Source: an uncultured virus (IMG/VR IMGVR_UViG_3300028832_000124)
Taxonomy: Duplodnaviria > Heunggongvirae > Uroviricota > Caudoviricetes
Length of the DNA stretch: 64,000 nucleotides
IMG/VR virus record: IMGVR_UViG_3300028832_000124
Reading direction: 5' to 3' (one strand)
The notes beneath the pieces were generated by a model. It saw only the letters and a list, made by a program, of their open reading frames with translations. It was not told the DNA's origin and ran no database searches. Of the stretch, positions 12,427-26,120 are shown piece by piece. Position numbers and translations under genes: made by a program. Numbering within the stretch: position 1 is the first letter of the stretch; every line of letters starts with the position of its first letter.

Positions 12427-14051
12427 ATAATATCAAGCTACTCTACATTGACCTCTTCTGTGGTGCTGGTGGCACTTCTACAGGAGTTGAGTACGCACAG
12501 CTCAATGGAGAAAAATGTGCGAAGGTGATTGCTTGTGTCAATCACGACCCGAACGCTATTCTATCCCATCAGGCCAACCATCCTGACACGCTACATTTTA
12601 CTGAGGATATTCGGACTCTGAATCTCACACCGCTTGTTGACCATCTACAGAAGATGAAAGTGCAATATCCTGACGCTTTGGTGGTCCTGTGGGCTTCACT
12701 CGAATGTACCAATTTCAGCCGTGCCAAAGGTGGACAGCCTCGTGACGCTGATTCCAGGACGCTTGCAGAACATCTTTTCAGATATATCGAAGCCATCCGT
12801 CCTAACTGGATTCAGATTGAGAATGTCGAGGAATTTATGATGTGGGGTGAACTTGACGAAAACGGTAAGCCTGTATCAAAAGACCAAGGCTCTGATTATC
12901 TCCGCTGGGTGCGCAAGGTACAGAGTTACGGCTACAATTTCGACTGGCGCATTCTGAATGCAGCCGATTTTGGAGCATACACCTCGCGCAAGCGTTTCTT
13001 TGGTCAGTTTGCTCAGAAGGGATTGCCTATCGCGTTTCCTATTCCCACCTACGCCAAGAATGGTGATGAAGGTGGATTGTTCTCAGTATATCACAAATGG
13101 AAGCCTGTACGCGAAGTTCTTGATTTCTCAGATGAAGGTGAATCTATCTTTGGACGAAAGAAGCCACTCTGCGAGAAAACACTTGAGCGAATCTATGCCG
13201 GACTGATAAAGTTTGTGGCTGGAATGTCTCAGAAAGATTTTTCCGCTTTCATCGTGAAGTACAATTCTATGAATAGAGGTGGCCACTATACAGCTCCATC
13301 TATCGACGAGCCATGTCCTACGGTTGCCTGTCAGAATCGGTTAGGTATTGCACAGGTTTCTTTCCTGTCGAAATACTATGGCGGTAAGGACCATAACGAA
13401 TCTATTGATTTACCTGCTGGCACTGTTACGACGAAAGATCATCATGCGCTTGTTGGTGCCGAGTTTATGTCTCAGTATTACGGTAATGGTTTCAATACAT
13501 CAGTGGATGACCCTGCACCAACGGTAACGACGAAGGATAGAATCTCGCTCGTTCGTTGTTTTATTGATAACCAGTACGGCAATGGTACACCGTCATCAGT
13601 GACACAGCCTTGCCCTACAATTCCTACCAATCCAAAGCAGAGTATTGTCAAGTGTAAGCAATTCCTAACGAATCCGTATTCTTTCAAAAGTAATGGTGGC
13701 AGCGTAGATAAGCCGTGCTTCACTCTGATAGCTCGTATGGATAAGATGCCTCCGTATCTCGTATGTACTGAGCAGGGAGAAGTTGGTATTGCTATCTATG
13801 AGGATGATTCTCCGATGACTCGCAAAGTCAAGGAATTTATGGCCATCTATCGTATCATCGACATTAAGATGCGTATGCTTAAGGTGTCAGAACTCAAAAA
13901 GATTATGGGATTCCCTGAGAATTATATTCTTGTTGGCACTCAGTCAGAGCAGAAGAAATTTATCGGCAATGCTGTTGAAGTTAACATGAGTCGTGTTCTT
14001 TGTGAAGCACTCTGTCAGAAACTTTCCAATATTATTAACATAGCAGTTTAA
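12423..14051 (+). CDS. DNA (cytosine-5) methyltransferase
   Basis: DLFCGAGG (I), SLECTNFS (IV), IENVEEF (VI), R.R.F (VIII), GNAV (X). Confidence 0.92.
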   Translation: MNNIKLLYIDLFCGAGGTSTGVEYAQLNGEKCAKVIACVNHDPNAILSHQANHPDTLHFTEDIRTLNLTPLVDHLQKMKVQYPDALVVLWASLECTNFSRAKGGQPRDADSRTLAEHLFRYIEAIRPNWIQIENVEEFMMWGELDENGKPVSKDQGSDYLRWVRKVQSYGYNFDWRILNAADFGAYTSRKRFFGQFAQKGLPIAFPIPTYAKNGDEGGLFSVYHKWKPVREVLDFSDEGESIFGRKKPLCEKTLERIYAGLIKFVAGMSQKDFSAFIVKYNSMNRGGHYTAPSIDEPCPTVACQNRLGIAQVSFLSKYYGGKDHNESIDLPAGTVTTKDHHALVGAEFMSQYYGNGFNTSVDDPAPTVTTKDRISLVRCFIDNQYGNGTPSSVTQPCPTIPTNPKQSIVKCKQFLTNPYSFKSNGGSVDKPCFTLIARMDKMPPYLVCTEQGEVGIAIYEDDSPMTRKVKEFMAIYRIIDIKMRMLKVSELKKIMGFPENYILVGTQSEQKKFIGNAVEVNMSRVLCEALCQKLSNIINIAV

Positions 14052-14067
14052 TTAAATCTTTACTAAC

Positions 14068-14865
14068 ATGAATCAGAATCAAGATTTAAAAATGCAACTG
14101 TTGAAGCAGTTTGGCATTTGTGACCAACCAAAGACTATAGACTTCTGTCGTGAAGCCTATAAGTTCTTAATCGAAGGTGACACTATGAAACTTGTTGGTT
14201 ACGACGAGAATGGTGCACCTATCATCGAAAAGACATCGTTCTCTCCTTACGATACAACTCCAAAGGAGATAACAGCTGTTGACCTTGGACTCCCGTCCGG
14301 TACTCTGTGGGCTGACCGTAACCTTGGTGCCAAATCTCCATCAGACTACGGTGCTTTCGTATCATGGGGTAATACTGACTTGCATTTCCCAGACAAAGGA
14401 GATGTTGATTGGGGTGATAACGATAACGCTTTCAAAGATTACGAGTTTAACTCAGAAGAATACGAAGACACTCCAGGAGCAAAGCTTAAAGGTGATATTG
14501 ACCTCGAACATGACGCAGCGCACGTTAACCTTGGTGGTGACTGGCGTATGCCTACCAAAGAGCAATTCCAGGAACTCTATGATAACTGCAGATGGATTCG
14601 TTCTACCGTTAATGGTGTTAACGGCTATCTCGTAGTTTCTAAGATAAATAAAGCATCCATCTTCTTTGCTTGCTCAGGCTACGGCGTTGGTACGAGTTGG
14701 AGCAATCGCGGTTCGGACGGCCTCTACTGGTCTTCCTCGTTCCTCTCGGCTCGGTCTGCCTACGGCTTGTACTTCGGCTCTGGTGGTGTCAATCCGCAGT
14801 ACTACAACTCTCGGTGCCGCGGGTTCCCCGTGCGCCCGGTTCAGAATATCGTTTCCCAAGAATAA
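14068..14865 (+). CDS. Remote DGR target protein (C-terminal variable domain) in the early operon
   Basis: VDLGLPSGTLWA..NLGA, WRMPT..F.EL domain; 3' end matches the TR. Confidence 0.92.
   Translation: MNQNQDLKMQLLKQFGICDQPKTIDFCREAYKFLIEGDTMKLVGYDENGAPIIEKTSFSPYDTTPKEITAVDLGLPSGTLWADRNLGAKSPSDYGAFVSWGNTDLHFPDKGDVDWGDNDNAFKDYEFNSEEYEDTPGAKLKGDIDLEHDAAHVNLGGDWRMPTKEQFQELYDNCRWIRSTVNGVNGYLVVSKINKASIFFACSGYGVGTSWSNRGSDGLYWSSSFLSARSAYGLYFGSGGVNPQYYNSRCRGFPVRPVQNIVSQE
14660..14844 (+). repeat. DGR variable repeat VR2
   Basis: 185 bp ungapped match to TR 23388-23572 (minus strand); 24 mismatches, all at TR adenines. Confidence 0.97.
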
Positions 14866-14874
14866 CCAAACACT

Positions 14875-14922
14875 CGACTCTGCCAACAAGCCGTTCCACA
14901 AGAACGGCCCAAGGCAGAGTCG
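14875..14922 (+). promoter_or_regulatory. Post-VR2 hairpin (DGR target-recognition candidate)
   Basis: CGACTCTGCC-AACAA-GCCGTTC-CACAA-GAACGGC-CCAA-GGCAGAGTCG. Confidence 0.8.
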
Positions 14923-14938
14923 CATATTGTAACTAAGT

Positions 14939-15166
14939 ATGAAATTCAAAGTTGGTGACAAAATCAGAATTGCGAAGAACTTCATGCGGATGGGCCGAAA
15001 TCATCTTGGCTCAGTCGGCATTGTTCTGGAGCATAGATGTTATGGTGGCAGGTATGTTGGCAACGAACCTACGCATTATGTCGTTAAGTTTGATTGCTAT
15101 AAGGTGCCTCACATCTTTATGCGGTTTGATTTGGAAGATAGCTGTGAATTAATTAAATCTGAATAA
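14939..15166 (+). CDS. Hypothetical protein
   Basis: MKFKVGDKIRI N-terminus typical of small phage proteins. Confidence 0.65.
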   Translation: MKFKVGDKIRIAKNFMRMGRNHLGSVGIVLEHRCYGGRYVGNEPTHYVVKFDCYKVPHIFMRFDLEDSCELIKSE

Positions 15167-15177
15167 AGAAATTTAGT

Positions 15178-15648
15178 ATGTGCAAAAAGAAATTAGTAGT
15201 AGCCGTTGATTTTAACGGCACCTGCGTCACGTATTGTTATCCAGAAGGGACGGGCGAGGACATCGGTGCTGTGCCCGTATTGAAACGTCTGCTGGCTGAA
15301 GGTCATTCGTTGGTGCTTATGACTGGTATCGAGCGAGATGGTGAGTTTGAACTGCCTATCGTTAAGGAACGATGGGATGATATGCTGAAATGGGTGGAGG
15401 ATAACGGCTTGACCTTTGTCGGCATCAACCGTAACCCATTGGAAAAGTACCGCAGCAAGAAACTGACGGCTGACATCTATATCGACGATCATTGCCTGGG
15501 AATCCCAACCAAGTTTGACCCCGAACGGAGTAATCGCCCGTTTGTAGATTGGGACGGTGTGGAGCAACTGCTGGAGATGATGAACGTACTACCATCGACA
15601 CCTCGGACGCATATCACAGTGAAACAACCGTCATTCATTTTCAAATAA
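15178..15648 (+). CDS. HAD-superfamily-like protein
   Basis: VAVDFNGT, K..ADIYIDD motifs. Confidence 0.75.
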   Translation: MCKKKLVVAVDFNGTCVTYCYPEGTGEDIGAVPVLKRLLAEGHSLVLMTGIERDGEFELPIVKERWDDMLKWVEDNGLTFVGINRNPLEKYRSKKLTADIYIDDHCLGIPTKFDPERSNRPFVDWDGVEQLLEMMNVLPSTPRTHITVKQPSFIFK

Positions 15649-15656
15649 GTAGTAAT

Positions 15657-15860
15657 ATGGCAAAGAAAATTGACATAGATAGGGCTATAGACGCTTTTAG
15701 GAGAACTTGCCCTGACTCTACAGAGCTAATACATTTGGATAGGACTTCTGAGCCTTATGAGTGTTTTGGACCAAAATGTAAAGAACACTCGTACAGATGC
15801 AATTATATATGTAAGCGATTACGTAGATTTATTAACATACTAAAAGAACCAGAACAATAA
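15657..15860 (+). CDS. Hypothetical protein
   Basis: ORF from MAKKIDID, in operon. Confidence 0.55.
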   Translation: MAKKIDIDRAIDAFRRTCPDSTELIHLDRTSEPYECFGPKCKEHSYRCNYICKRLRRFINILKEPEQ

Positions 15861-15863
15861 ATC

Positions 15864-16151
15864 ATGGCAAAGACAATTAAGATTACGTTTTATAACCCGA
15901 AGGAACTCTGGATAAAGTTCTGTAATTGGGTGTTTTGGCCACGGCATAAAAAGTGTGTCGATTGGTGCGATTATTACGATGGCGTACTGGATTCTATGAT
16001 TGTTAAAATATTGCAAGATGAGAACGCTAAAGGTACGATTAGTGACGAAACAGCAGAACGGCTTGAAATTGCATTAAAACATGCTAACTATCAAGTTTCC
16101 AAACAAACTGCAGAACTCATGTCAGAACAATATAAATACGAAGACTCATGA
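15864..16151 (+). CDS. Hypothetical protein
   Basis: 95 aa ORF overlapping the next start. Confidence 0.6.
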   Translation: MAKTIKITFYNPKELWIKFCNWVFWPRHKKCVDWCDYYDGVLDSMIVKILQDENAKGTISDETAERLEIALKHANYQVSKQTAELMSEQYKYEDS

Positions 16152-16630
16152 AGAAAATCAAGACTTACAACATCATGCTCTCGAAAGTGTTCCCTGTAAC
16201 ACATGAGAGAAAAGGTGAGCCAACTTTCTTTAGTCAGAAGGTACAGGCTGCAAAATTCCCCACCGTTTATCCTAACGAGACGCCAAAGCTGCACACCATC
16301 AGAGCAAACTATCCTCTTTGGGAGAAACGTATAGCTGAGGTACAATCCGGAAACGCTGAAATTTGTCTACGTCAATGGACTGGTAAACCATATCGCTCAA
16401 AGACGGTAGAAATTATGCGACTGACCGCTGATGATGGTGTCGGCATCCAGTGCCTCACGTTTTATGACAATCGCATCATCTATCCTACCGTCGACAACAA
16501 CTATCAACCGAGCATCAAAGAAATATCGGCCAACGATGGGTTGTCTAAAGATAGCTGGATAGAATGGTTTCGCGGTTACGACCTATCGCAACCAATGGCG
16601 ATAATTCATTTTACTAATTTCAGATATTAA
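16148..16630 (+). CDS. Hypothetical protein, possibly ASCH/PUA-like
   Basis: KLHTIR and ANDGLS...WF motifs. Confidence 0.6.
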   Translation: MKKIKTYNIMLSKVFPVTHERKGEPTFFSQKVQAAKFPTVYPNETPKLHTIRANYPLWEKRIAEVQSGNAEICLRQWTGKPYRSKTVEIMRLTADDGVGIQCLTFYDNRIIYPTVDNNYQPSIKEISANDGLSKDSWIEWFRGYDLSQPMAIIHFTNFRY

Positions 16631-16631
16631 C

Positions 16632-17369
16632 ATGGCAACAAAAATTGAGTGGACTCAAAAGGTGTGGAATCCGGTAACGGGCTGCACCAAGGTAAGCGAG
16701 GCTTGCCAAAACTGTTACGCGGAAGTGATGGCACGACGGCTACAGAAAATGCCTGGCAGTGCTGACAAGTATCGTAATGGCTTCCAGCCGACAATTCATG
16801 TCAGCAGTCTGGGTGAGCCGTTGGAGTGGAAGAAACCTACTATGGTTTTCGTGTGTTCTATGGGCGACCTGTTCCATAAAGACGTATCGTTTGACTTCAT
16901 CGACATGGTGATGAATGTCATCCGTGAATGTCCGCAACACACATTCCAGATTCTTACCAAGCGTCCTGAGCGCATGGCAGAGTATTTCAACGAACTGCGT
17001 GGCGTTCCTCAGAACGTCTGGCTTGGTACGACTTGTGAAAGCGACAAACATTTTGACCGCATCGACCACCTGCGTAAAATCAAAGGTGCAAAGGTGCGTT
17101 TCCTGAGTTGTGAGCCGCTTTTAGGTGACTTGTGGGGTATTAACCTGCGTGGTATTGATTGGGTCATAACAGGTGGAGAAAGTGGATCGTGCGCCCGTCG
17201 TACACCTGTAGAGTGGTTCCGTACCCTTCGTGACGTGTGCCAGCGTAACTTTGTGCCTTTCTTCTTTAAGCAGTGGGGAGCATGGAGTGAGGACGGCATT
17301 AAACAGAGTAAGTATAAGAATGGCTCTCTGCTCGATGGCAGGGAGTGGAAAGAATATCCAAACGTATAA
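16632..17369 (+). CDS. DUF5131 (Gp37/Gp68) radical-SAM-like protein
   Basis: TKIEWT..WNPVTGCTKVSEACQNCYA, SMGDLFH, FQILTKRP, WVITGGESG, FFFKQWG. Confidence 0.92.
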   Translation: MATKIEWTQKVWNPVTGCTKVSEACQNCYAEVMARRLQKMPGSADKYRNGFQPTIHVSSLGEPLEWKKPTMVFVCSMGDLFHKDVSFDFIDMVMNVIRECPQHTFQILTKRPERMAEYFNELRGVPQNVWLGTTCESDKHFDRIDHLRKIKGAKVRFLSCEPLLGDLWGINLRGIDWVITGGESGSCARRTPVEWFRTLRDVCQRNFVPFFFKQWGAWSEDGIKQSKYKNGSLLDGREWKEYPNV

Positions 17370-17371
17370 TC

Positions 17372-17917
17372 ATGTTAGATAACGAAAAACTACAAAAACT
17401 GGCAAAGGAAATCTATGAGATTGCCGTTGCTCATGGCTGGCACGAAGATACCAAGCCTAACGAACTTTGGATGGCCCTTGTTATGTCTGAGGTTGCAGAA
17501 GCAGTCGAGGCAGATAGGAAACACATTTCTGTTAATGGAAACCTTGAAGGATTCCATAAACTGATTGAAGTAGGGCATGATTTTAAGACGGTATATAGAG
17601 ATTACCTCAAAGGTTCTGTTGCAGAGGAACTGGCTGATATTGTCATCCGATTGCTTGACTACATCAACATGCGCTGGGGTGATAAATATGAATGGTGGTA
17701 CAATCCACACAGCTTCCGTATTCCTGACGAGTTCCCTGTGGCTGCATGGAAACTTGTAAAGGTGCATCTTAACGAAGGTAGTATGAATGTCCGTGACAGC
17801 ATCCAGTACGTCATAGAGTGGGCTGATAAACTGAACATCGACCTCGAAGAGCATATCAAGTGGAAGATGCGTTATAACTCTCTCCGTTCATATAAACATG
17901 GTGGCAAAAAGTATTAA
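17372..17917 (+). CDS. MazG-like NTP pyrophosphohydrolase
   Basis: SEVAEAVEADR, EELADIVIRLLD, KMRYN..R..KHG. Confidence 0.8.
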   Translation: MLDNEKLQKLAKEIYEIAVAHGWHEDTKPNELWMALVMSEVAEAVEADRKHISVNGNLEGFHKLIEVGHDFKTVYRDYLKGSVAEELADIVIRLLDYINMRWGDKYEWWYNPHSFRIPDEFPVAAWKLVKVHLNEGSMNVRDSIQYVIEWADKLNIDLEEHIKWKMRYNSLRSYKHGGKKY

Positions 17918-17920
17918 GTC

Positions 17921-18337
17921 ATGGATATAAAAGAACTAATGGTTGGCGACATCGTGGAATACCTCGATGGCGACCAACCTATTCCCGTAGTGGTCGTAAA
18001 GATTGACGGCCCAAGTGATGTAGTATGCCTCAAGCAGAAGAATGGCCATAAGTTCAATACGACCATAGAGTATCTGAGACCAATTCCTATCACAAAGGAA
18101 TTTCTTGAAAAGAATGATTTTGAACTGAATGGAAATTCTTATCATTTCTTTGATGACGATAAACCGTTGGAGATTTTTGTATTCCTTAAAGAAAACAACT
18201 ATAATGGCTCATATACCTATGTTGATATTTCAAGAGGGTGTATAGACATTACTGAAATGCCGATGGAATATGTTCATGAACTCCAGAACGTGCTCATACT
18301 TTGTAAAATAGAACTAACAGAAATAACTCTCCCGTAG
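17921..18337 (+). CDS. Hypothetical protein
   Basis: ELMVGD...PIPIT.EFLEKN...YVHELQN pattern. Confidence 0.75.
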   Translation: MDIKELMVGDIVEYLDGDQPIPVVVVKIDGPSDVVCLKQKNGHKFNTTIEYLRPIPITKEFLEKNDFELNGNSYHFFDDDKPLEIFVFLKENNYNGSYTYVDISRGCIDITEMPMEYVHELQNVLILCKIELTEITLP

Positions 18338-18343
18338 TATAAC

Positions 18344-18820
18344 ATGAAAGAAAACCAATTCTCCGTAGAGCCAGGAATAGGCTCAATCCCAGCAAAAGGT
18401 ACCAAGTGTTGGTACGTTCGTTCTAACATGATAGCCCACAAGTTCATCGTACAGGAAGCCGAATGGATCGGTGGCGTGTCAGACTTGCTACGCATGGCCA
18501 AGGGTAACATGTTTTTCTCTTGGAAGGAAGCCAACGAGTTAGAGACTCAGCTTAATGAGCGTCTTGAAAAACTCAAGGCACTCACTCAGACCGACGAGTA
18601 CAAACAGAAACTCGCTGATGATGAAGCCAAGAAAAAGGCTGAGTCAGAAGAGCGCAAGCGTAAGCGCGAGGAAGCTATTGCCGCCAAGAAAGCTGCTAAA
18701 GAGGCTGCTATCATCGACCCAACGGCAAAGAAGAAGCCCAAAGGACTCACCACCCGAGAGGCCGCTATCAAGTACGAGGCTAAAAAGAAGAAATCTCCGC
18801 ATCCTGATATTATCGTTTAG
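18344..18820 (+). CDS. Hypothetical protein with K/E/A-rich C-terminus
   Basis: 158 aa; last gene of the early operon. Confidence 0.7.
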   Translation: MKENQFSVEPGIGSIPAKGTKCWYVRSNMIAHKFIVQEAEWIGGVSDLLRMAKGNMFFSWKEANELETQLNERLEKLKALTQTDEYKQKLADDEAKKKAESEERKRKREEAIAAKKAAKEAAIIDPTAKKKPKGLTTREAAIKYEAKKKKSPHPDIIV

Positions 18821-18831
18821 TCTCTCTATGG

Positions 18832-18865
18832 AAATGGGAGCTGTCCTCACGGATGGCTCCCATTT
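18832..18865. terminator. Hairpin between the convergent early and late operons
   Basis: AAATGGGAGCTGTCC-TCAC-GGATGGCTCCCATTT. Confidence 0.65.
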
Positions 18866-18986
18866 AAAACAAACTACTAATTCTTTTACTAACCAAAAAC
18901 TATTAACCTTATGAAAAAACTCACTGCTACCGCTGTAGCATACCTGTATTAATAATCAACTATTTTCCGTTTTGTATGTTGCCGTG

Positions 18987-19541
18987 TCACGGCAATAGGC
19001 TTATCGTAATACCAAGTCCTACGAACGGCTCCACCTGTTTTGATTGGAACCCATATCCGTAGCCACCGATAAGCCCAAGATTCCACCTTCTGAACTTTTT
19101 CGTCGCAACAGTCCGTGTCTCTACGATGGAATGAAGAATCTCCTTTTGTCTCACAAAGATGCTATCCAGTTGTGGCTCATATCCGCTGACCCATGCCGTA
19201 TAGGTACTGTCATCCGTGTACATCTTCTGAGTAACTTCTAAGCAGATTGAATCCTGCTTATTTTCCCCAATACTATCCAAATAAGCGGAATCGGCCTTTA
19301 TTGGCACCTTAATATATCGTATCACGGTCTCTTTTTTGGCCTCCGGCATGGAGTCCTTTTTCTCCGTGTACTTGATGACCGTCTTTTCAACGGTCTTCAC
19401 GGGCTGTTCCTGCAGGTCCCGATATTGCTTGTAGTTATACAGCAGCGAGACGATCAACAGGAGAATAATGCCAACCATGCAGATGAAGCATGCTTTCATG
19501 CTGCCACCGCTACGAGCCAACTTTCTTTCGTAGTAGTCCAT
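18987..19541 (-). CDS. Spanin-like lysis accessory protein
   Basis: N-terminal TM helix, C-terminal Gly/aromatic beta-hairpin; last gene of the lysis cassette. Confidence 0.5.
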   Translation of the reverse strand: MDYYERKLARSGGSMKACFICMVGIILLLIVSLLYNYKQYRDLQEQPVKTVEKTVIKYTEKKDSMPEAKKETVIRYIKVPIKADSAYLDSIGENKQDSICLEVTQKMYTDDSTYTAWVSGYEPQLDSIFVRQKEILHSIVETRTVATKKFRRWNLGLIGGYGYGFQSKQVEPFVGLGITISLLP

Positions 19542-19543
19542 AA

Positions 19544-19996
19544 CTATTCGATTTTAATGAATATCATTCCCTTCGCTGTTTTCAGCTTCTCGTACAGAGC
19601 ATGGAAGGTGGCCGTTGATTCCAGTACCTTACCCACCTCTTTGTTCTTACCAACGAGGATGCAGCCCTCGCTATCCTTGGCAGTATTGCCGATATGAATC
19701 AGCACACCGTCATAGGCAGGCACATTCAGCAGTCTGGGCAGATAGCCCTTGCAGAAGTCATACTGCTTCTTCAACGAGAAACGTGGTGACTTCACGCCAA
19801 GCGTAACCTGATAGCGTCCTGTAGGGATAGCTGTCTGTCCGTGAATCTTCTTTTTCTTATTCACGCTGGCAGGCAAGCTCTGGTCCAGTCCTCGGTCACA
19901 GTCCTCGATGGTGTCACAAAAGTAAACACCGTCGATAAAAAGCCTTCCAATCGTGTAGGTAGCGCGTCGCGCTATTCGCTTCAATAGTAAATCCAT
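19544..19996 (-). CDS. DUF5675-family putative endolysin
   Basis: YTIGRL...CDTIED, TAIP.G.Y, IH.GN...DSEGCILVG; next to holin. Confidence 0.8.
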   Translation of the reverse strand: MDLLLKRIARRATYTIGRLFIDGVYFCDTIEDCDRGLDQSLPASVNKKKKIHGQTAIPTGRYQVTLGVKSPRFSLKKQYDFCKGYLPRLLNVPAYDGVLIHIGNTAKDSEGCILVGKNKEVGKVLESTATFHALYEKLKTAKGMIFIKIE

Positions 19997-20009
19997 AACT
20001 CAATCCTTT

Positions 20010-20519
20010 TTAGTTATCGTCACCGTTGTACTCATGAGAAACAATGTCGTTACCCTCAAAGTCTTTCTTGTCTTGTGTAAGGGCATCCAGCACTTTCTCG
20101 ATACCGCCATACTCACGAATCAATGCAAGGATGGCTTTCCTGTATTCTTGCTGCTGTTTCCTTTCCTTTATGTCAGCAGGCTCCCAGATGCTTTTCACTT
20201 CCACGAACCCAACATATCCCAATGCCAACAGCGTGAACCAAGGCACCATGATAATATCCCGTCCGTAGAAATGGTACAGGAATACCAATAAGGCCAGCTG
20301 CACGATGTCTATCAGACTGAGGGCAAAGGTCATGTTGAAGTATTGGGCTATCTTCGCGATTGTTCGCTTATAGCCGTCAGACGTGCGGAACTCACCGCGC
20401 TTCTTTGCCTTTCTGATTCCTGCCTGTAAGTCGCAGAAGATAAGGCCAAGTATAATAACGTAGCAGAGCAGCATGAATGCACCGCAAAACATAAGTGTTG
20501 TCAATCGATCCATAATCAA
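20010..20519 (-). CDS. Putative holin
   Basis: Three TM segments, DL.AGIRKAK..GE.RTS.GY.RT, E.KSIWE. Confidence 0.75.
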   Translation of the reverse strand: MIMDRLTTLMFCGAFMLLCYVIILGLIFCDLQAGIRKAKKRGEFRTSDGYKRTIAKIAQYFNMTFALSLIDIVQLALLVFLYHFYGRDIIMVPWFTLLALGYVGFVEVKSIWEPADIKERKQQQEYRKAILALIREYGGIEKVLDALTQDKKDFEGNDIVSHEYNGDDN

Positions 20520-21037
20520 ATTATCAGTTTAGTCAATAACGCTGCAGCAAGGCAGAACCAGCTCACGAACTCGGCAAGGAACACTCCCTTCCTATGAATC
20601 CAGCAGGGTATCGAGTCGCCATTGTCAGAGAATATCATCAGTGCAGCTAAATGGGTCCACACCAGCATCCACCAAGGGCAGATGATACAGACACAGCACT
20701 GAGAGAATACACCTCCTGCAAGTCCTGATATGGTAAACCACAAATCCCTATTCTTTCTGACCATCGGCAACAGTCCGGCTATCACCATCGACGTAGCATA
20801 GACGTGGGCCAATCCTTCCCATTCATCTGGCATGATGTCAAAGAGGGCAGGGGTAAGCGTGAATGTGGCCACCCAAAGCCATAAGGTATATAGCAGCCGT
20901 CTGGCTTTGCTCTCATGTCCGTATGCCATATCTGATACAGTGGCAGGAAGCTCCCCGTCTCTCCGCGTCCATCCGATAACGAGAGTGAACACCGTCACCA
21001 TCGAAATCAATACAAGTATCAAATAGATCCGTTCCAT
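20516..21037 (-). CDS. Multi-pass membrane protein
   Basis: About five hydrophobic segments; resembles the next gene. Confidence 0.7.
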   Translation of the reverse strand: MERIYLILVLISMVTVFTLVIGWTRRDGELPATVSDMAYGHESKARRLLYTLWLWVATFTLTPALFDIMPDEWEGLAHVYATSMVIAGLLPMVRKNRDLWFTISGLAGGVFSQCCVCIICPWWMLVWTHLAALMIFSDNGDSIPCWIHRKGVFLAEFVSWFCLAAALLTKLII

Positions 21038-21101
21038 AAAGCGTTATTATTTCTTTCTATTATCTCGTCTCACTTCCCCTGCAATTGTTCGCAGGGCTTA
21101 C

Positions 21102-21575
21102 TCAGAGGATGCAGAACAGCACCACGTTTGCAAAGCAGATAACTTCTGCTATGAAACACCACCGCCACCTGCATTCCTTCCATGCCATCAGAACACCGAA
21201 CAGAATCCATGAGACAAGAATCTCAGGACTATTCAGGGCAATGGCCAACTGGCTCAGAATACATGCGGCAACACCTGCCACATTGTGCGTAGTCACCATG
21301 TCTTTGGCACACAACGGGAACACACCAAGCACACCCAAAGCGACAATCGTAAGGAATGCCAGGAACTTCGTATTCTCACTCGTATTCTCCACGAATGCAG
21401 GGCATACCAGCCAAGCACACACAAAGATGACCGCACTCCACACCCACCGATGTTTCAAGTCAAACACCGTCTGACTGATGCTTGGTGGAACTTCACCTCT
21501 AACGCCAGTGGCGTAGGCGAGGTAGGCAGCGAGAATCACCGCTGCCAAACCTGCCATGATATAAATACCTGCCAT
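21102..21575 (-). CDS. Multi-pass membrane protein
   Basis: About five hydrophobic segments. Confidence 0.7.
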   Translation of the reverse strand: MAGIYIMAGLAAVILAAYLAYATGVRGEVPPSISQTVFDLKHRWVWSAVIFVCAWLVCPAFVENTSENTKFLAFLTIVALGVLGVFPLCAKDMVTTHNVAGVAACILSQLAIALNSPEILVSWILFGVLMAWKECRWRWCFIAEVICFANVVLFCIL

Positions 21576-21588
21576 ACGCCATTAGAGA

Positions 21589-22119
21589 TTACTCGTTGAC
21601 TTCCTGTTCCTCAGCAGCAGCAAAGAAAGCCTCGTAAGGCTCGAAGTCGATAGCGTCCTTTTCCTGCCAGCCCTCGTTGAGCGTCTGGTTGATGTAGGCT
21701 ACACCTTCGAGATAGAACTGCTTGAGAGTGTTCACTGAGTTGAACGTGTGATAGACGGCCTTACCCTCTGCATCCTCACCGAGCTTGAACTTGATGGGCA
21801 GACTGGCACCTTCCGTCAGCTGGGCAGCGGTCAGAGCACCAAGGTAATTCTCCTGATTCTCCTTAGAAAGGTACACGGGCTTGCCGTTCCAAACAAAGCC
21901 TGTGAGAATCTTCTCGTCGGTCTTCGCGTTGATGTCGGCAATGATAGCCTTCTTCACATCGTCCAGGGTAATCTGAGAAATCTGCTTCTTGTAGATGTAA
22001 ATCTCTACCCAAGTGGCGTTTTCCTCGTCTACTTCCTCGTAGCCGTAGCAAATGATCACTCGACTTGCATCCTCCTTGATGGGAGCAAAGTCTGTCTTTT
22101 TTCCAAAAACCTTGTTCAT
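21589..22119 (-). CDS. DUF4376-like tail-fibre-associated protein
   Basis: IN..TDEKILTGFVWNGKPVYLSKENQ.NY, LPIKFKLG, EGWQEKD. Confidence 0.65.
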   Translation of the reverse strand: MNKVFGKKTDFAPIKEDASRVIICYGYEEVDEENATWVEIYIYKKQISQITLDDVKKAIIADINAKTDEKILTGFVWNGKPVYLSKENQENYLGALTAAQLTEGASLPIKFKLGEDAEGKAVYHTFNSVNTLKQFYLEGVAYINQTLNEGWQEKDAIDFEPYEAFFAAAEEQEVNE

Positions 22120-23320
22120 AATCACCAATTTTTAAATGTTTATAAAATAAAAGTCTGTCTGTTATTTTGGTCATATCCTTGTCGAAGATGCCGATGCGTA
22201 GAATCGGTTTCGTCATCAGCAGTTTCCTGCTCAGATTGTACGATTTCGTGTGTCGGAATATTCCTAAGTAGGAGTTTACCGAACGTAGCACTCTCCAAGG
22301 CTTCGAGTAGTCGAACTCTGCTATCTTTGTCCTGATACGGCCTAAAGCATGATTCGATATGTACGTTCGCCAAGGTTTGATGTAGGCTCCTAAGAACTCC
22401 ACGCCATGATGTACCTCGCTCAGTTCCAGCTTGCCCATGTGTAAGTCCAGACCCAGCTCCGCTTTCAAGAAATCCCTTATTCTCGGCACCAAGCTCAGCA
22501 GTCTCTCCCTGTCTGCACAGACGACGGCTGCATCGTCCACATACCTGCCATAGAATCTGCATTTCAGTTCTCGCTTCATAAACTGGTCGAACACATTCAG
22601 ATAGACATTCGAGAAGAGCTGACTCGTAAGATTGCCGATGGGCAGGCCAAGGCCATCTTCCAAGTGAAGCATCGACTTGGCAGGGTCCAGACCATCCCAA
22701 TCGGAAAGCTTGCCACAGATGATACAGTTCTCTTTCGGATTCAGCATGACGATGATTTCCGTCAGCCATATCACGAAATCCATATCCAGCACGTCGCTCC
22801 ACGTCTGCTTGTTGCCCTTGCATAACCGATGACTGGCCATCTTTCTCAAACTGGCGATAGCTACCTCTAATAGCTTCTTTCGCCTGATGTGCATGAAGTA
22901 GCCGCGAATATCCAAGTGCATCACATAACATTTCCGCTGCCAGTTGTGACTCTCCTTCCTGCAGAAGTCCGTTATACGACCAATGCCATAGTGAGTGCCA
23001 CGCTTCTTGATGCAGCTGTACGTGTCCTGTATAAACGTCCTCTCGAACAGGCCATGCGTGTAGTTGAAATAAAGATGATGTACGATACGGTCCCTGAATA
23101 TTGCAGCGAATATCTCCCTCTTCTTGGGATAGTCCACAATGAAGCATTTCGACTGGTCGGGCTTGTATCTCCGATAGTACAAATCGTCGCACAGCTCTTC
23201 CATGTTCTGCTTGAGATTCCTTTCCCATTTCCTCACATAGCCCCGAGCCGATTTGTGTTTCTTCGCACTGTAGAATGCCTGATAGAGGTCGAGAAGTAAC
23301 TGCTGCCTTGTCAGTACCAT
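21863..23320 (-). CDS. DGR reverse transcriptase
   Basis: KKREIFAA.FRDRIVHH, LDIRGYF, GLPIGNLTSQLFSNVYL (DGR-type SQ motif), YGRYVDD; adjacent to TR. Confidence 0.96.
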   Translation of the reverse strand: MVLTRQQLLLDLYQAFYSAKKHKSARGYVRKWERNLKQNMEELCDDLYYRRYKPDQSKCFIVDYPKKREIFAAIFRDRIVHHLYFNYTHGLFERTFIQDTYSCIKKRGTHYGIGRITDFCRKESHNWQRKCYVMHLDIRGYFMHIRRKKLLEVAIASLRKMASHRLCKGNKQTWSDVLDMDFVIWLTEIIVMLNPKENCIICGKLSDWDGLDPAKSMLHLEDGLGLPIGNLTSQLFSNVYLNVFDQFMKRELKCRFYGRYVDDAAVVCADRERLLSLVPRIRDFLKAELGLDLHMGKLELSEVHHGVEFLGAYIKPWRTYISNHALGRIRTKIAEFDYSKPWRVLRSVNSYLGIFRHTKSYNLSRKLLMTKPILRIGIFDKDMTKITDRLLFYKHLKIGDYEQGFWKKDRLCSHQGGCKSSDHLLRLRGSRRGKRHLGRDLHLQEADFSDYPGRCEEGYHCRHQREDRREDSHRLCLERQARVPF

Positions 23321-23387
23321 AGTCCGTTCCGTATGTTGCCGTGCTATAGCAACAGAAAATAGTCAAAAGGATAGTCAGAAGTGTATG

Positions 23388-23574
23388 CTGAACCGGGCGC
23401 ACGGGGAACCCGTTGTACCGATTGTTGTTGTTCTGCGGATTGACACCACCAGAGTTGAAGTTCAAGTTGTAGGCATTCCGAGCCGAGTTGAACGATGAAG
23501 ACCAGTAGTTGCCGTTCGAACCGCGATTGTTCCAACTCGTACCATTGCCGTTGCCTGAGCAAGCAAAGAAGAGC
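23388..23574 (-). ncRNA. DGR template repeat (TR)
   Basis: 187 bp with 17 AAY codons in the target frame; differs from both VRs only at adenines. Confidence 0.97.
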
Positions 23575-23740
23575 TTTCGGCCACAACCTTGCACGATGAC
23601 ACTAAGGGGTTGCACTAAACAAGACCGAAGTGTATCTTCCGTTTTTCCCATCACCGCAAGCAGTGGTAGGACGTGTGGCCTGTGAATATCGTTCTGAACC
23701 ATCCTTGAAAAGTTAATAATTCCGTTACCTAACACTATTA

Positions 23741-24301
23741 TTAGAACATAGCAGAAACCTGTCTGCGCAAGTCACGCAATTCATCCCAAGCGTCTCTGGG
23801 CGACATGTCCTCGATAGGAAGCGAGACAATACGGGAAATGATGTCCGAGAAACGCATAATTCTTGGTGCCTGGGCAGACATTTCACGGTCCTCGCGCTTC
23901 TGCTTCTTGCTCTCTACCAATGGCAGGGCGTTTTTCCAATCCTCCTTCATCTTATTGAGGTTGTCAAACGTCACTTCACCAATCTCAGCAGGCAGCTCTA
24001 TCCTTACATCAATCTGTGTGTCGCTGATGGGGTTGAACTCCACACTGCCGTCGTTGGGAACATACTTGCCGATAGACGATGCAGGAAAGCCAAGGAAAGC
24101 GTCAATGTAGCCGTCTTTCAGTTTCTTCGCCAACACCTTCAAAGGCTTCTCCAGAGCCTCGCCAAAAGGAAATGTGGTCATCAGCCATGCGCTCCAATCA
24201 TGGGCGCGATACCAGTCACCTTCCTTAATCAGATGGATGACATTCCACTGAGTAGCTTCCTCTCGCTTGGTTTCAATTCCTATAATTTCTGCTATTGTCA
24301 T
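23741..24301 (-). CDS. DGR accessory protein, MutS-like (MSL) type
   Basis: IHLIKEGDWYRAHDWSA resembles MutS domain I; C-terminal LPIEDMSPRDAWDEL resembles the MutS tail; occupies the accessory-gene slot between VR1 and TR. Confidence 0.7.
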   Translation of the reverse strand: MTIAEIIGIETKREEATQWNVIHLIKEGDWYRAHDWSAWLMTTFPFGEALEKPLKVLAKKLKDGYIDAFLGFPASSIGKYVPNDGSVEFNPISDTQIDVRIELPAEIGEVTFDNLNKMKEDWKNALPLVESKKQKREDREMSAQAPRIMRFSDIISRIVSLPIEDMSPRDAWDELRDLRRQVSAMF

Positions 24302-24343
24302 CTTTGTTATTTTTCTTTTTAGTTACCTTATTCCTCTCCAATG

Positions 24344-24393
24344 CGGAGTAGGCCTTGTGCGGCTCTTGTGGAGCCGCTTGTGGGCCCACTCCG
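24344..24393 (-). promoter_or_regulatory. Post-VR1 hairpin (DGR target-recognition candidate)
   Basis: Minus strand CGGAGTGGGCC-CACAA-GCGGCTC-CACAA-GAGCCGC-ACAA-GGCCTACTCCG. Confidence 0.8.
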
Positions 24394-24438
24394 AATGAAA
24401 AGGTTTTGTTTGGTTTTGTCCTCTTTTGGAGAACGATA

Positions 24439-25542
24439 TTACTGAACCGGGCGCACGGGGAACCCGCTGCACCGATCGTCGACGTGCTGCGGATTGACAC
24501 CACCAGAGCTGAAGTACAAGTAGTAGGCATACCGAGCCGAGAGGAACGACGAAGACCAGTAGTAGCCGTACGAACCGCGACCGTTCCAACTCGTACCACC
24601 GCCGTTGCCTGAGCAAGCAAAGAAGAGCAAGTTACCGTTAATCTTCGACTTCAAGTAGATACCTACAACACCGTTGACGGTGACGCGCTTATCAGTCGTA
24701 CCAGCGTCTATGACGGTAGTACCGTCGGCCTGTACGAAGTCACAGTTGTCGAACAACTCCTTGAACTCAGCAGATGTAGGCATGCGCCAAGGACCGCCAA
24801 GGTTAGCACGGGCAGCATCCTGAGAGGGTGCCATGCTGGCAGTGAGCTTGTTGCCAGGAGTGTCACCATAAACCTGTCCGTCGTAGTAGGGAGCCTCAGA
24901 GTTGACACCGCCCCAGTTGTAATCGAATGCACTTGTGCTGATGGGATTGTGGCCATCGGTGTTACCCCAAGAGAAGAAAGTCTTCTCATACTGGAACGGA
25001 CTTGCTGCGAACTTGTCAGCCTGTGTGAGGTCGATGTCGCAGTCAGCCCACTTCAAACCGCTGGGCAGACCCATGTCAACGACGTGGGCAGTAGGTGTCT
25101 GAGTCTGTTCAAGACCCATGTAGCCTACCATATTCCAATAAGTGCCGTCGTACTGGAACTGCACGATGGTACGTGCCTTGATGACTCCGGGCTGGATAGC
25201 AGCACCGTACACGCGGATAGCCTTAGCACCCGTGTTGTTCACGTTCAAAGTAGCACCTGCAATCTCGTTGGCTGTGGTGAAGAACACACTCACCTTACCA
25301 TTCTTCTTGAGAACGAAGTTGGTAATAGCAACAGCCTTCTCAAGTGTGGTGGCAGGGGTAGAGCAAGTACCATAGCCACTACCTGCAGTAGCCATGTCCT
25401 GTATCAACTGCTGGGCAGGGTACTGCTTGTTGGGCGTACCGTCAGGATTGCAAATCATCACAACCTGATCAGCAGATGGAGCACCATTGGTAAGCCCCGA
25501 AACAACCGCCTTGATGGAGTTGATTGTTGAAATTCCTTCCAT
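24439..25542 (-). CDS. DGR target 1: tail-fibre/receptor-binding-like protein
   Basis: ATLNVNNTGAKAI...QYDGTYW fibre-type domain, VDMGLPSGLKWA domain, C-terminal VR. Confidence 0.9.
   Translation of the reverse strand: MEGISTINSIKAVVSGLTNGAPSADQVVMICNPDGTPNKQYPAQQLIQDMATAGSGYGTCSTPATTLEKAVAITNFVLKKNGKVSVFFTTANEIAGATLNVNNTGAKAIRVYGAAIQPGVIKARTIVQFQYDGTYWNMVGYMGLEQTQTPTAHVVDMGLPSGLKWADCDIDLTQADKFAASPFQYEKTFFSWGNTDGHNPISTSAFDYNWGGVNSEAPYYDGQVYGDTPGNKLTASMAPSQDAARANLGGPWRMPTSAEFKELFDNCDFVQADGTTVIDAGTTDKRVTVNGVVGIYLKSKINGNLLFFACSGNGGGTSWNGRGSYGYYWSSSFLSARYAYYLYFSSGGVNPQHVDDRCSGFPVRPVQ
24442..24628 (-). repeat. DGR variable repeat VR1
   Basis: 187 bp ungapped match to TR; 20 mismatches, all at TR adenines. 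Confidence 0.97.
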
Positions 25543-25574
25543 GTTTTCTGTTTTTTAAAAGTTATAAACGTATA

Positions 25575-26120
25575 TTAGTTCTTAGTAACAATAATCTTCG
25601 GCATGAGCTTCACCAAGTCTTTCAGCATATCATCAACGGTATAGCTGACACCATTGAAGGTGTAGGTGTCCGTCGGCTTCAATGCGGAAGATGCGTTACT
25701 CCTGATGGTGGATAGGTCGCTGATAGTGTCCTGCTTGCCTGCAAGAGCTGCATTCAGCGTGGCTACCCAATATTCTATCGAGGCATCTGTGAAGACTTCC
25801 CAATCTTGGTCAAGGGTTTCGTCAGCTATGACAAGAGCAATCTTGCCGCCAACGGTATGCGTGACAAATTGGCCGTTGTCTATCTGAGGAACGACTGGCA
25901 AATTGCTGGTCGCTCTCAAGGCGCGATACAACACACCGTTGATGCCGATAACAGCATTCTTCCTGAAAGTGCTCGACGGTGTGAGCGAGTTGATGTCTAC
26001 AGGAAGCAAATGCTCGTCTGCATTCGAGGAAAGCTCTGTCTTCGTAGCCACGTTGGTATATATCCAAGCGGCAATGGGCTTGTATATCTTCTGAATGAAG
26101 GAACGAAGCGTGTTATTCAT
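25575..26120 (-). CDS. Putative virion/tail-associated protein
   Basis: ORF from MNNTLRSF in the tail region. Confidence 0.65.
   Translation of the reverse strand: MNNTLRSFIQKIYKPIAAWIYTNVATKTELSSNADEHLLPVDINSLTPSSTFRKNAVIGINGVLYRALRATSNLPVVPQIDNGQFVTHTVGGKIALVIADETLDQDWEVFTDASIEYWVATLNAALAGKQDTISDLSTIRSNASSALKPTDTYTFNGVSYTVDDMLKDLVKLMPKIIVTKN

Follow-up and report, generated by a model that had tools for sequence, protein, structure and literature searches.

Two-tier hairpins as a putative target signal of a diversity-generating retroelement in an uncultured virus

The 64,000-nt stretch of IMG/VR record IMGVR_UViG_3300028832_000124 analysed here (hereafter the window) comes from an uncultured virus of the class Caudoviricetes and carries a diversity-generating retroelement (DGR) with two target genes. 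Each of these genes ends in a variable repeat (VR1 and VR2) and is followed by a hairpin of two nested stems that are separated by C/A-rich unpaired loops. Judging from sequence comparison and folding, this hairpin, the invariant GC-rich tail of the VR and a conserved AATATCGTT box together probably form the cis-acting target signal of this DGR. We favour this reading because the position of the hairpin, the logic by which stems are kept as structure and loops as sequence, and its absence behind the template repeat (TR) all match the signal of BPP-1. The hairpin is best read as a clade-specific enlarged structural variant of the BPP-1-type initiation of mutagenic homing (IMH) sequence plus hairpin, and not as an element of a new kind. 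The way in which DGR cDNA locates its target and gets into it is a step of the mechanism that is still open, and the clade described here offers about 80 natural variants of a large, well-defined signal.

The retroelement, its two targets and their hairpins

The window contains a complete DGR cassette on the minus strand, comprising target gene 1, an accessory open reading frame (ORF), the TR and the gene for the reverse transcriptase (RT). Target gene 1 (24439-25542, 367 aa, taken from the ORF list) has at its end VR1 (24442-24628), the repeat that it shares with the TR (23384-23574, likewise on the minus strand). The RT (21863-23320, 485 aa) matches RVT_1 at E 2.4e-11 and phrog_1423 at E 6e-78. 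Target gene 2 (14068-14865, 265 aa) is remote and lies on the plus strand, and its terminal VR2 (14660-14844), identified by repeat comparison, is located 8.5 kb from the TR on the opposite strand. The C-terminus of target 1 is C-type-lectin-like, with a weak Lcl_C match (E 1.7e-5, under the Pfam cut-off), and target 2 also matches Lcl_C weakly (E 8e-5).

All mismatches between TR and VR1 fall at TR adenines (20/20), as do 24 of the 26 between TR and VR2, the remaining two being at the 5' edge of the homology. Because the mismatches are adenine-specific in both comparisons, both genes are genuine DGR targets, and the cassette has what defines a DGR, namely an RT adjoining a TR together with VRs that differ from it at TR adenines. 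The last 25 nt of VR1 (24442-24466, minus strand) form an IMH-like, GC-rich 3' tail that is the same in TR, VR1 and VR2 in the repeat alignment. Among 24 public runs examined as contigs, the contigs of two break at the VR/TR repeats. One RNA-library contig spans 23415-23938.

Behind VR1, the two-tier hairpin occupies 24344-24393 on the minus strand. Read from 24393 to 24344, it consists of an outer stem of 11 bp that includes one G.T pair, an unpaired CACAA stretch, an inner stem of 7 bp closed by a CACAA apical loop, and an unpaired ACAA on the returning side. Behind VR2, the hairpin (14875-14922, plus strand) has an outer stem of 10 bp, AACAA on the leading side, an inner stem of 7 bp, again a CACAA apical loop, and CCAA on the returning side. 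RNAfold and DNA folding both give precisely these structures, and the hairpins that the original prediction had placed behind the two VRs are thereby confirmed in sequence, in coordinates and in their RNA and DNA folds. The RNA energies are -34.8 kcal/mol for the VR1 hairpin and -29.3 kcal/mol for the VR2 hairpin (z -8.7 and -9.7), none of 200 shuffles folds as well as either of them, and the corresponding z-scores with DNA parameters are -8.0 and -9.0. The two hairpins also rank first and second in stability among 31,974 sliding 55-nt windows covering both strands, for which the background has a mean of -9.7 and a standard deviation of 4.0 kcal/mol. The third most stable fold, at an unrelated locus (21502-21556, -30.3 kcal/mol), is in or at the start of an ORF at 21102-21575, about 300 nt past the RT stop codon, and has no match to the hairpin model described below.

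Both hairpins are preceded by the shared sequences AATATCGTT ... AACCAAACA, as had been claimed. Directly 3' of the stop codon at VR1, a small hairpin with a 6-bp stem and a CAAAA loop (24418-24434, minus strand) sits inside the conserved AATATCGTT box, which is unlike the TR flank, and relatives have equivalent small hairpins with other stem sequences. Between this small hairpin and the large one lies a C/A-rich spacer (24404-24417, minus strand, ..AACCAAACAAAA..), identified from alignment and fold. At VR2, the conserved box and spacer (AATATCGTT...AACCAAACA, 14845-14874, plus strand) are partly coding, with the stop codon at 14863-14865. When the region 24330-24445 is folded as a whole, the VR1 hairpin extends to a three-tier stem-loop (24333-24403, minus strand), and its CATT../..AATGG-type outer tier is kept in relatives. 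The 91 nt 3' of the TR fold no better than shuffles (z +0.54).

Occurrence among relatives and the folding strand

Relatives of the RT were found at 14 loci in viral contigs (54-85% identity), at 80 loci in metagenome contigs and at 80 loci in genome contigs, the last mostly Bacteroidales, Prevotella or Paludibacteraceae metagenome-assembled genomes (MAGs) from ruminant and other guts. Self-comparison gave A-biased TR/VR pairs at 116 of the 171 loci of at least 1.5 kb. One locus (L015) was rejected as an independent copy, as it shows no differences in the 333 nt around the window's VR2. Nearly all DGRs with an RT at least 49% identical to that of the window carry, at a distance of 0-77 nt behind the VR, a long compound hairpin built from an outer stem, an unpaired C/A-rich stretch, an inner stem (4-11 bp, mostly 5-8 bp and GC-rich) and a loop of 3-9 nt. 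Some 80 related DGRs of Bacteroidales phages or prophages have a hairpin of this type behind the VR, and none has it behind the TR. The two-tier rule holds for 83 hairpins, with the unpaired stretch on both sides in 27 (the type of the window), only on the 5' side in 21 and only on the 3' side in 35. Internal and apical loops of the two-tier hairpins are 72-79% A+C, 72% of the unpaired positions are A or C, and the most frequent apical loops in relatives are CACAA, GGA, CCCA and GACA. Where the RT is 35-48% identical, most of the DGRs have short GC stems that pair perfectly and are closed by GAA, GTAA or GGA loops, which is the classical hairpin type as described in the available text of Guo 2011 (PMC3240598).

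Across 76 unique relatives, the 120 nt behind the VR fold with a mean dG of -51.7 and a mean z of -6.5 (z < -3 in 69/76), compared with -20.1 and 0.0 for the 120 nt behind the TR (z < -3 in 1/76), and the VR flank is the more stable of the two in 75 of the 76. The claim that the TR lacks the hairpin therefore holds for the window and its relatives alike. In one relative, L013, a single target protein (ORF L013:1226-2950) has two VRs, one internal (L013:1828-2014) and one C-terminal, both A-diversified against one TR (fractions of 0.88 and 0.95 at TR adenines). With two A-diversified VRs in one protein, this target is tandem C-type-lectin-like.

For the search for further sites, covariance model R1 was built from seven seed sequences, including the two hairpins of the window, with the structure given by hand. 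A combination of MAFFT and RNAalifold on eight hairpins was rejected, as it recovered the outer stem only, with the inner stem mis-registered by MAFFT. When run unfiltered on the window, R1 scores well at the two seed sites alone (72.2 and 50.9 bits), the next match, at 15.2 bits, being the antisense of the VR1 hairpin. On 175 loci totalling 874 kb, R1 gave 28 matches at E <= 1. These include 22 in sense orientation at hairpin sites (20 checked as lying 3' of a VR, while L016 and L098 were not checkable), five on the antisense of hairpin sites, and one elsewhere, inside an RT gene (L068, E 0.024). In five phage records (286 kb), all matches are hairpin sites or their antisense, and three of the sites are new, a fourth row being the terminal-repeat copy of one of them. 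All three new sites follow remote VRs; 16/17 and 22/22 mismatches lie at TR adenines in two of these VRs, and the third is partly N-masked. In five host MAGs (14.4 Mb), with only 131-150 of the 131-485 first-look candidates scored in each genome, R1 recovered the five post-VR sites already known and a single VR-less site. The covariance-model scan for extra targets proposed in the original prediction thus yielded three remote VRs, and the refuting condition named there, that the structure be common at non-DGR loci, is not borne out in the sequences scanned, where R1 matches almost only behind VRs. A hairpin covariance model can accordingly find orphan or remote DGR targets far from the RT, such as the three found here, which are usually missed when the cassette alone is inspected.

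The stems covary. Between the VR1 and VR2 hairpins, six base pairs (four in the outer stem and two in the inner) have changed on both sides and yet remain paired. In alignment A8, which holds 16 distinct hairpins fitted to the model structure, 91.2% of cells pair compared with 74.0 +/- 1.4 in shuffles, and 21 of 22 pairs have changed on both sides compared with 8.4 +/- 1.9; none of 500 shuffles reaches any observed measure and slid partners pair at only 34-45%, although the sequences are related, so that the shuffle figures, like the binomial ones below, overstate independence. Pairing in the inner helix, at 86%, is an underestimate, because R1 places the inner stem out of register in the two hairpins of the window itself. 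These results agree with the earlier claim that structure is conserved and stem sequence is not.

The stems also carry a signature of the strand that folds. A first strand test, based on G.U pairs in separate sense and antisense folds, was dropped because the T/G-rich antisense loops pair together; the test reported here uses helices defined without G.U pairs, favouring neither strand. Isolated stem mismatches in 80 hairpins are of the G.T type in 51 cases and of the A.C type in 12. When each of the 64 sequence clusters is represented by a single hairpin, there are 40 mismatches of the G.T type and 10 of the A.C type (p 2e-5), with 28 clusters leaning to G.T and 6 to A.C, and the same representatives hold 29 purine.purine mismatches versus 6 pyrimidine.pyrimidine ones. 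Base composition is skewed by a few percent, which should not be able to yield a fourfold mismatch bias. Since a symmetric cruciform predicts no such bias, the mismatches argue for the sense strand folding alone, as single-stranded DNA or as RNA.

Three other explanations are weaker than a target signal. The first of them accepts the sense strand and has the hairpin act as RNA at the 3' untranslated end of the target transcripts, where it would stabilise the end, be processed or terminate transcription without a U-tract, and where its link to the VR would be indirect. The G.U-type bias and the tolerance of purine.purine mismatches are indeed expected of an RNA structure, and in both target genes the hairpin stands just past the stop codon. 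We nevertheless consider this explanation unlikely. No T-tract is present 3' of either hairpin, where the flanks are A-rich or mixed, so that neither is the GC-rich hairpin with a following T/U tract that makes an intrinsic terminator, and a terminator scan lists neither in sense orientation. Rfam covariance models gave no match at E <= 1 over 14000-25600 on both strands. Two paralogous target lineages have kept the loop sequence, and neither the 64-kb window nor the related phage records (286 kb) have the hairpin at any other gene; this confinement to VR-bearing genes disfavours a general 3'-end element.

The second, to which we give slightly less weight still, is a symmetric DNA cruciform that would be extruded from supercoiled duplex and act as a recognition or cleavage site for a structure-specific nuclease of the host. 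This was the initial proposal for BPP-1, and the available text of Guo 2011 (PMC3240598) reports nuclease evidence of the hairpin/cruciform in supercoiled DNA. Both strands of the window's hairpins can fold, the antisense strand at -34.3 and -33.3 kcal/mol, and the DNA z-scores range from -6.4 to -9.0. In a cruciform, however, a mismatch would cost both arms equally, so no bias would be expected, and the per-cluster counts (G.T 40 versus A.C 10, purine.purine 29 versus pyrimidine.pyrimidine 6) are biased to the types that the sense strand tolerates. Highly improbable, finally, is a duplex-DNA protein-binding array of three ..CAAG repeats about one helical turn apart (11-12 nt) with secondary palindromic stems, for although the VR1 hairpin has CACAAG three times at 12- and 11-nt spacing and the VR2 hairpin has ACAAG, ACAAG and CCAAG, the stems covary, keeping their pairing while the sequence drifts, and the C/A stretch found on one side in relatives (5' in 21 and 3' in 35 of 83) breaks the triple-repeat geometry while the two-tier fold is kept.

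Beyond the relatedness of the aligned sequences, several observations weigh against the interpretation as a target signal. The extra tier with its internal loops departs from the known single-stem descriptor, and the apical loop is a 5-nt CACAA in both copies, not the 4-nt GRNA of the known hairpin. The sense-strand bias suits an RNA structure in the target transcript equally well as sense single-stranded DNA. In L013, all that comes behind the internal VR (14/16 mismatches at TR adenines) is a simpler, bulged hairpin of 10 bp that lies in coding sequence, and the two-tier form is therefore not essential. The VR-less R1 match in the 14.4 Mb of host MAGs (G009:C119:1289-1348, locus L191, 35 bits) is a perfect palindrome of 15 bp whose interior pairs poorly and which lacks an inner hairpin, and no VR of that genome's known TR lies beside it.

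The accessory protein, a possible mechanism and other features of the window

As a target signal, the hairpin would mark the VR, and not the TR, as the site where adenine-mutagenised cDNA is installed, and therefore one TR and RT could serve neighbouring as well as remote targets. Most likely, it would form on the sense strand, the strand complementary to the cDNA, while this is transiently single-stranded, for example as lagging-strand template or behind RNA polymerase. Positioned just 3' of the VR, the folded hairpin may delay refilling or re-annealing and so keep the VR open for annealing of the cDNA, and a DGR factor probably reads its unpaired loops, which are C/A-rich and invariant. According to the available text of a 2026 study (PMC12875486), reconstituted BPP-1 has a preference for targets in which the strand complementary to the cDNA serves as lagging-strand template, and the authors suggest that the target stays open for longer owing to the stem-loop. 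The sense-strand bias found here fits the lagging-strand-template finding, and the strand signature, with the cDNA-complementary strand selected to fold, offers support from natural sequence variants for the lagging-strand/open-target model.

The sole accessory ORF of the cassette (23741-24301, minus strand) encodes 186 aa, and in the clade of the window it is the only ORF between VR and TR, both in the window and in 79 relatives. The protein has no Pfam or PHROG match at E <= 0.01, its profile gives only noise against PDB chains (E 1.9 or worse), and none of its 158 homologues is named or has a Pfam domain. It has a G-D-W/F-Y motif in which the aromatic residue is conserved. Its AlphaFold2 model (pLDDT 80.7) has no Foldseek match at E <= 0.001, while the high-probability rows (0.8-0.95) are all MutS, with a root-mean-square deviation (rmsd) of 1.9-4.5 over 57-94 columns. 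VIA aligns residues 1-94 of the model with residues 15-97 of Taq MutS (Z 4.9, rmsd 3.1, 81 aligned), and the helical C-terminus matches generic helical hairpins only. The Pfam domain MutS_I is matched below threshold (E 0.007-0.04) solely in distant homologues, which are tied to the family at E 1e-10 to 4e-15 and adjoin a bAvd gene. Foldseek, VIA and the sub-threshold MutS_I matches thus lend weak support to an N-terminus like MutS domain I in the modelled protein and, to that extent only, to the MutS likeness asserted in the original prediction.

No ORF in the 64-kb window matches an Avd profile at E <= 10. An Avd origin of the C-terminus of the accessory protein was also rejected, as hhalign of the family against 14 Avds gave a probability of 0.4%. 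Across the relatives, the type of accessory and the type of hairpin go together. Where the MutS-like protein is the only accessory, the two-tier hairpin is present in 71 of 79 DGRs and at 3/3 remote targets; with the MutS-like protein plus Avd it is present in 0/8; and among the 17 DGRs with Avd only, five are flagged as two-tier, all of them low-energy folds, the others being weak or simple. The association is real but is a trait of a single clade, and shared ancestry could explain it. Two relatives have longer accessory ORFs (L070:215-1039 with 275 aa and L075:608-1345 with 246 aa), which match the MutS-like profile at E 1e-5 and 1e-7, respectively. The C-terminal half of the former has a faint bAvd match (E 0.028), and this protein may be a MutS-like/Avd fusion.

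The MutS-domain-I-like accessory would be the obvious candidate reader of the C/A loops, the binding to the hairpin that the original prediction suggested being conjectural. The combination of an Avd-less cassette, with the MutS-like protein only, and loop-bearing hairpins makes this protein a concrete candidate for the reading of the target signal. A more far-reaching scenario, which we put forward tentatively and regard as rather doubtful, is that the DGR of this clade has lost Avd and that a protein derived from MutS domain I docks on the mismatch-like C/A internal loops of the sense-strand DNA hairpin, in the way that MutS docks on insertion/deletion loops. Protein and DNA structure would then form an address system that recruits cDNA to dispersed targets, and the placement of the loop (on the 5' side, on the 3' side or on both) would be a specificity code that co-evolves.

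Some further features of the window were recorded. A 531-aa ORF (22140-23735, minus strand) in the +2 frame of the RT gene begins ahead of the TR, in the reading frame of the VR, and extends over the TR and the initial ~1180 nt of the RT gene. In the window and in eight close relatives (L001, L003, L004 with 40% GC, L005, L014, L096, L097 and L019), the +2 frame is free of stops over the initial 1140 nt of the RT gene, and the +1 frame of this region has 19-32 stops. Most other relatives have 12-46 stops in the +2 frame, and a few have 0-3 (L136, L021 and L044). Pfam matches only the TR-encoded Lcl_C piece of this ORF, which may be an overprinted gene or reflect another constraint. A 40-nt direct repeat with 75% identity links the spacer between TR and RT, including the RT start (23316-23355), to the region near 18.9 kb where the gene blocks of the plus and minus strands converge (18959-18998). 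Each copy holds a short TTGC..GCAA-type inverted repeat, and the similarity may be due to chance. The cumulative GC skew peaks at about 18000-19000, where gene orientation turns from plus to minus, and the two DGR targets face each other across this point. Given the change of sign near 18-19 kb, both targets would be co-directional with converging forks, but the skew is inseparable here from the direction of transcription and is no evidence for this.

Comparison with known systems

The closest known counterpart is the target signal of BPP-1, for which the available text of Guo 2011 (PMC3240598) describes an IMH and a downstream GC-rich hairpin/cruciform as a transplantable unit that efficient retrohoming needs and that is sufficient to retarget, the stem being recognised by its structure and the loop by its sequence. 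As in that description, the hairpins of the window lie tens of nt 3' of the VR, beyond the TR/VR homology, and are absent behind the TR; their stems are kept as structure and their loops as sequence; they are present at each target of a multi-target DGR; and their inner stem is GC-rich and 7 bp long. They differ from the single 7-10 bp stem of BPP-1 in having two or three tiers, with 17-30 bp in the window and up to ~40 bp in relatives, and in their 5/4-nt internal loops, the inner stem being nested in an outer stem of 10-11 bp. Further differences from the BPP-1 description are the small extra hairpin straight after the stop codon and a DGR without detected Avd.

The simple GC hairpins of Avd-type DGRs (RT 37-44% identical) share the post-VR position and the GC-rich stem. 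They differ in having perfect stems of 4-10 bp, GAA, GTAA or GGA loops and no internal loop, and the accessory of these DGRs is bAvd (PF22296, E 1e-11 to 1e-19), unlike that of the window. A likeness of another sort is offered by the integron attC site, an imperfect hairpin that is kept in structure and not in sequence and that folds from one specific DNA strand. Its unpaired bases give strand choice and protein recognition, which is comparable to the logic of the hairpins described here, although the recombination system is an unrelated one that uses a tyrosine recombinase, and no homology is implied.

Group IIC introns, as treated in the available text of Guo 2011 (PMC3240598), are likewise retroelements that recognise a stem-loop as structure in single-stranded DNA, but their targeting has no dependence on loop sequence and the target is a true terminator with a U-tract. 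The accessory protein, in turn, is like MSL (Wu et al. 2018, PMC5758913; Bacteroides Msl, bioRxiv 10.1101/2024.11.15.621889, both as far as their available text goes) in being a small cassette protein with a weak resemblance to the MutS mismatch domain. According to the accessible part of Wu et al. 2018, avd is present as well in the DGRs that have MSL, unlike the window and its 79 relatives, which have the MutS-like protein as their sole accessory, with no avd detected in the window. No loop-bearing or two-tier post-VR hairpin was found in the literature searched, supplements excluded, and the inverted repeats that Wu et al. 2018 give for each DGR in their supplementary tables might include members of the clade. 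The available text of the Bacteroides DGR preprint has no mention of a hairpin, cruciform, stem-loop or IMH, and the hairpin mentioned in PMC10743442 is a protein beta-hairpin and not a DNA element.

These comparisons also place the view of the original prediction that the element is an address label by which the DGR finds a remote target. The specificity of the hairpin for DGR targets and its match to the role described for BPP-1 (available text of PMC3240598) speak for that view, but such a label is not new in kind, as it is the known role of a simpler hairpin.

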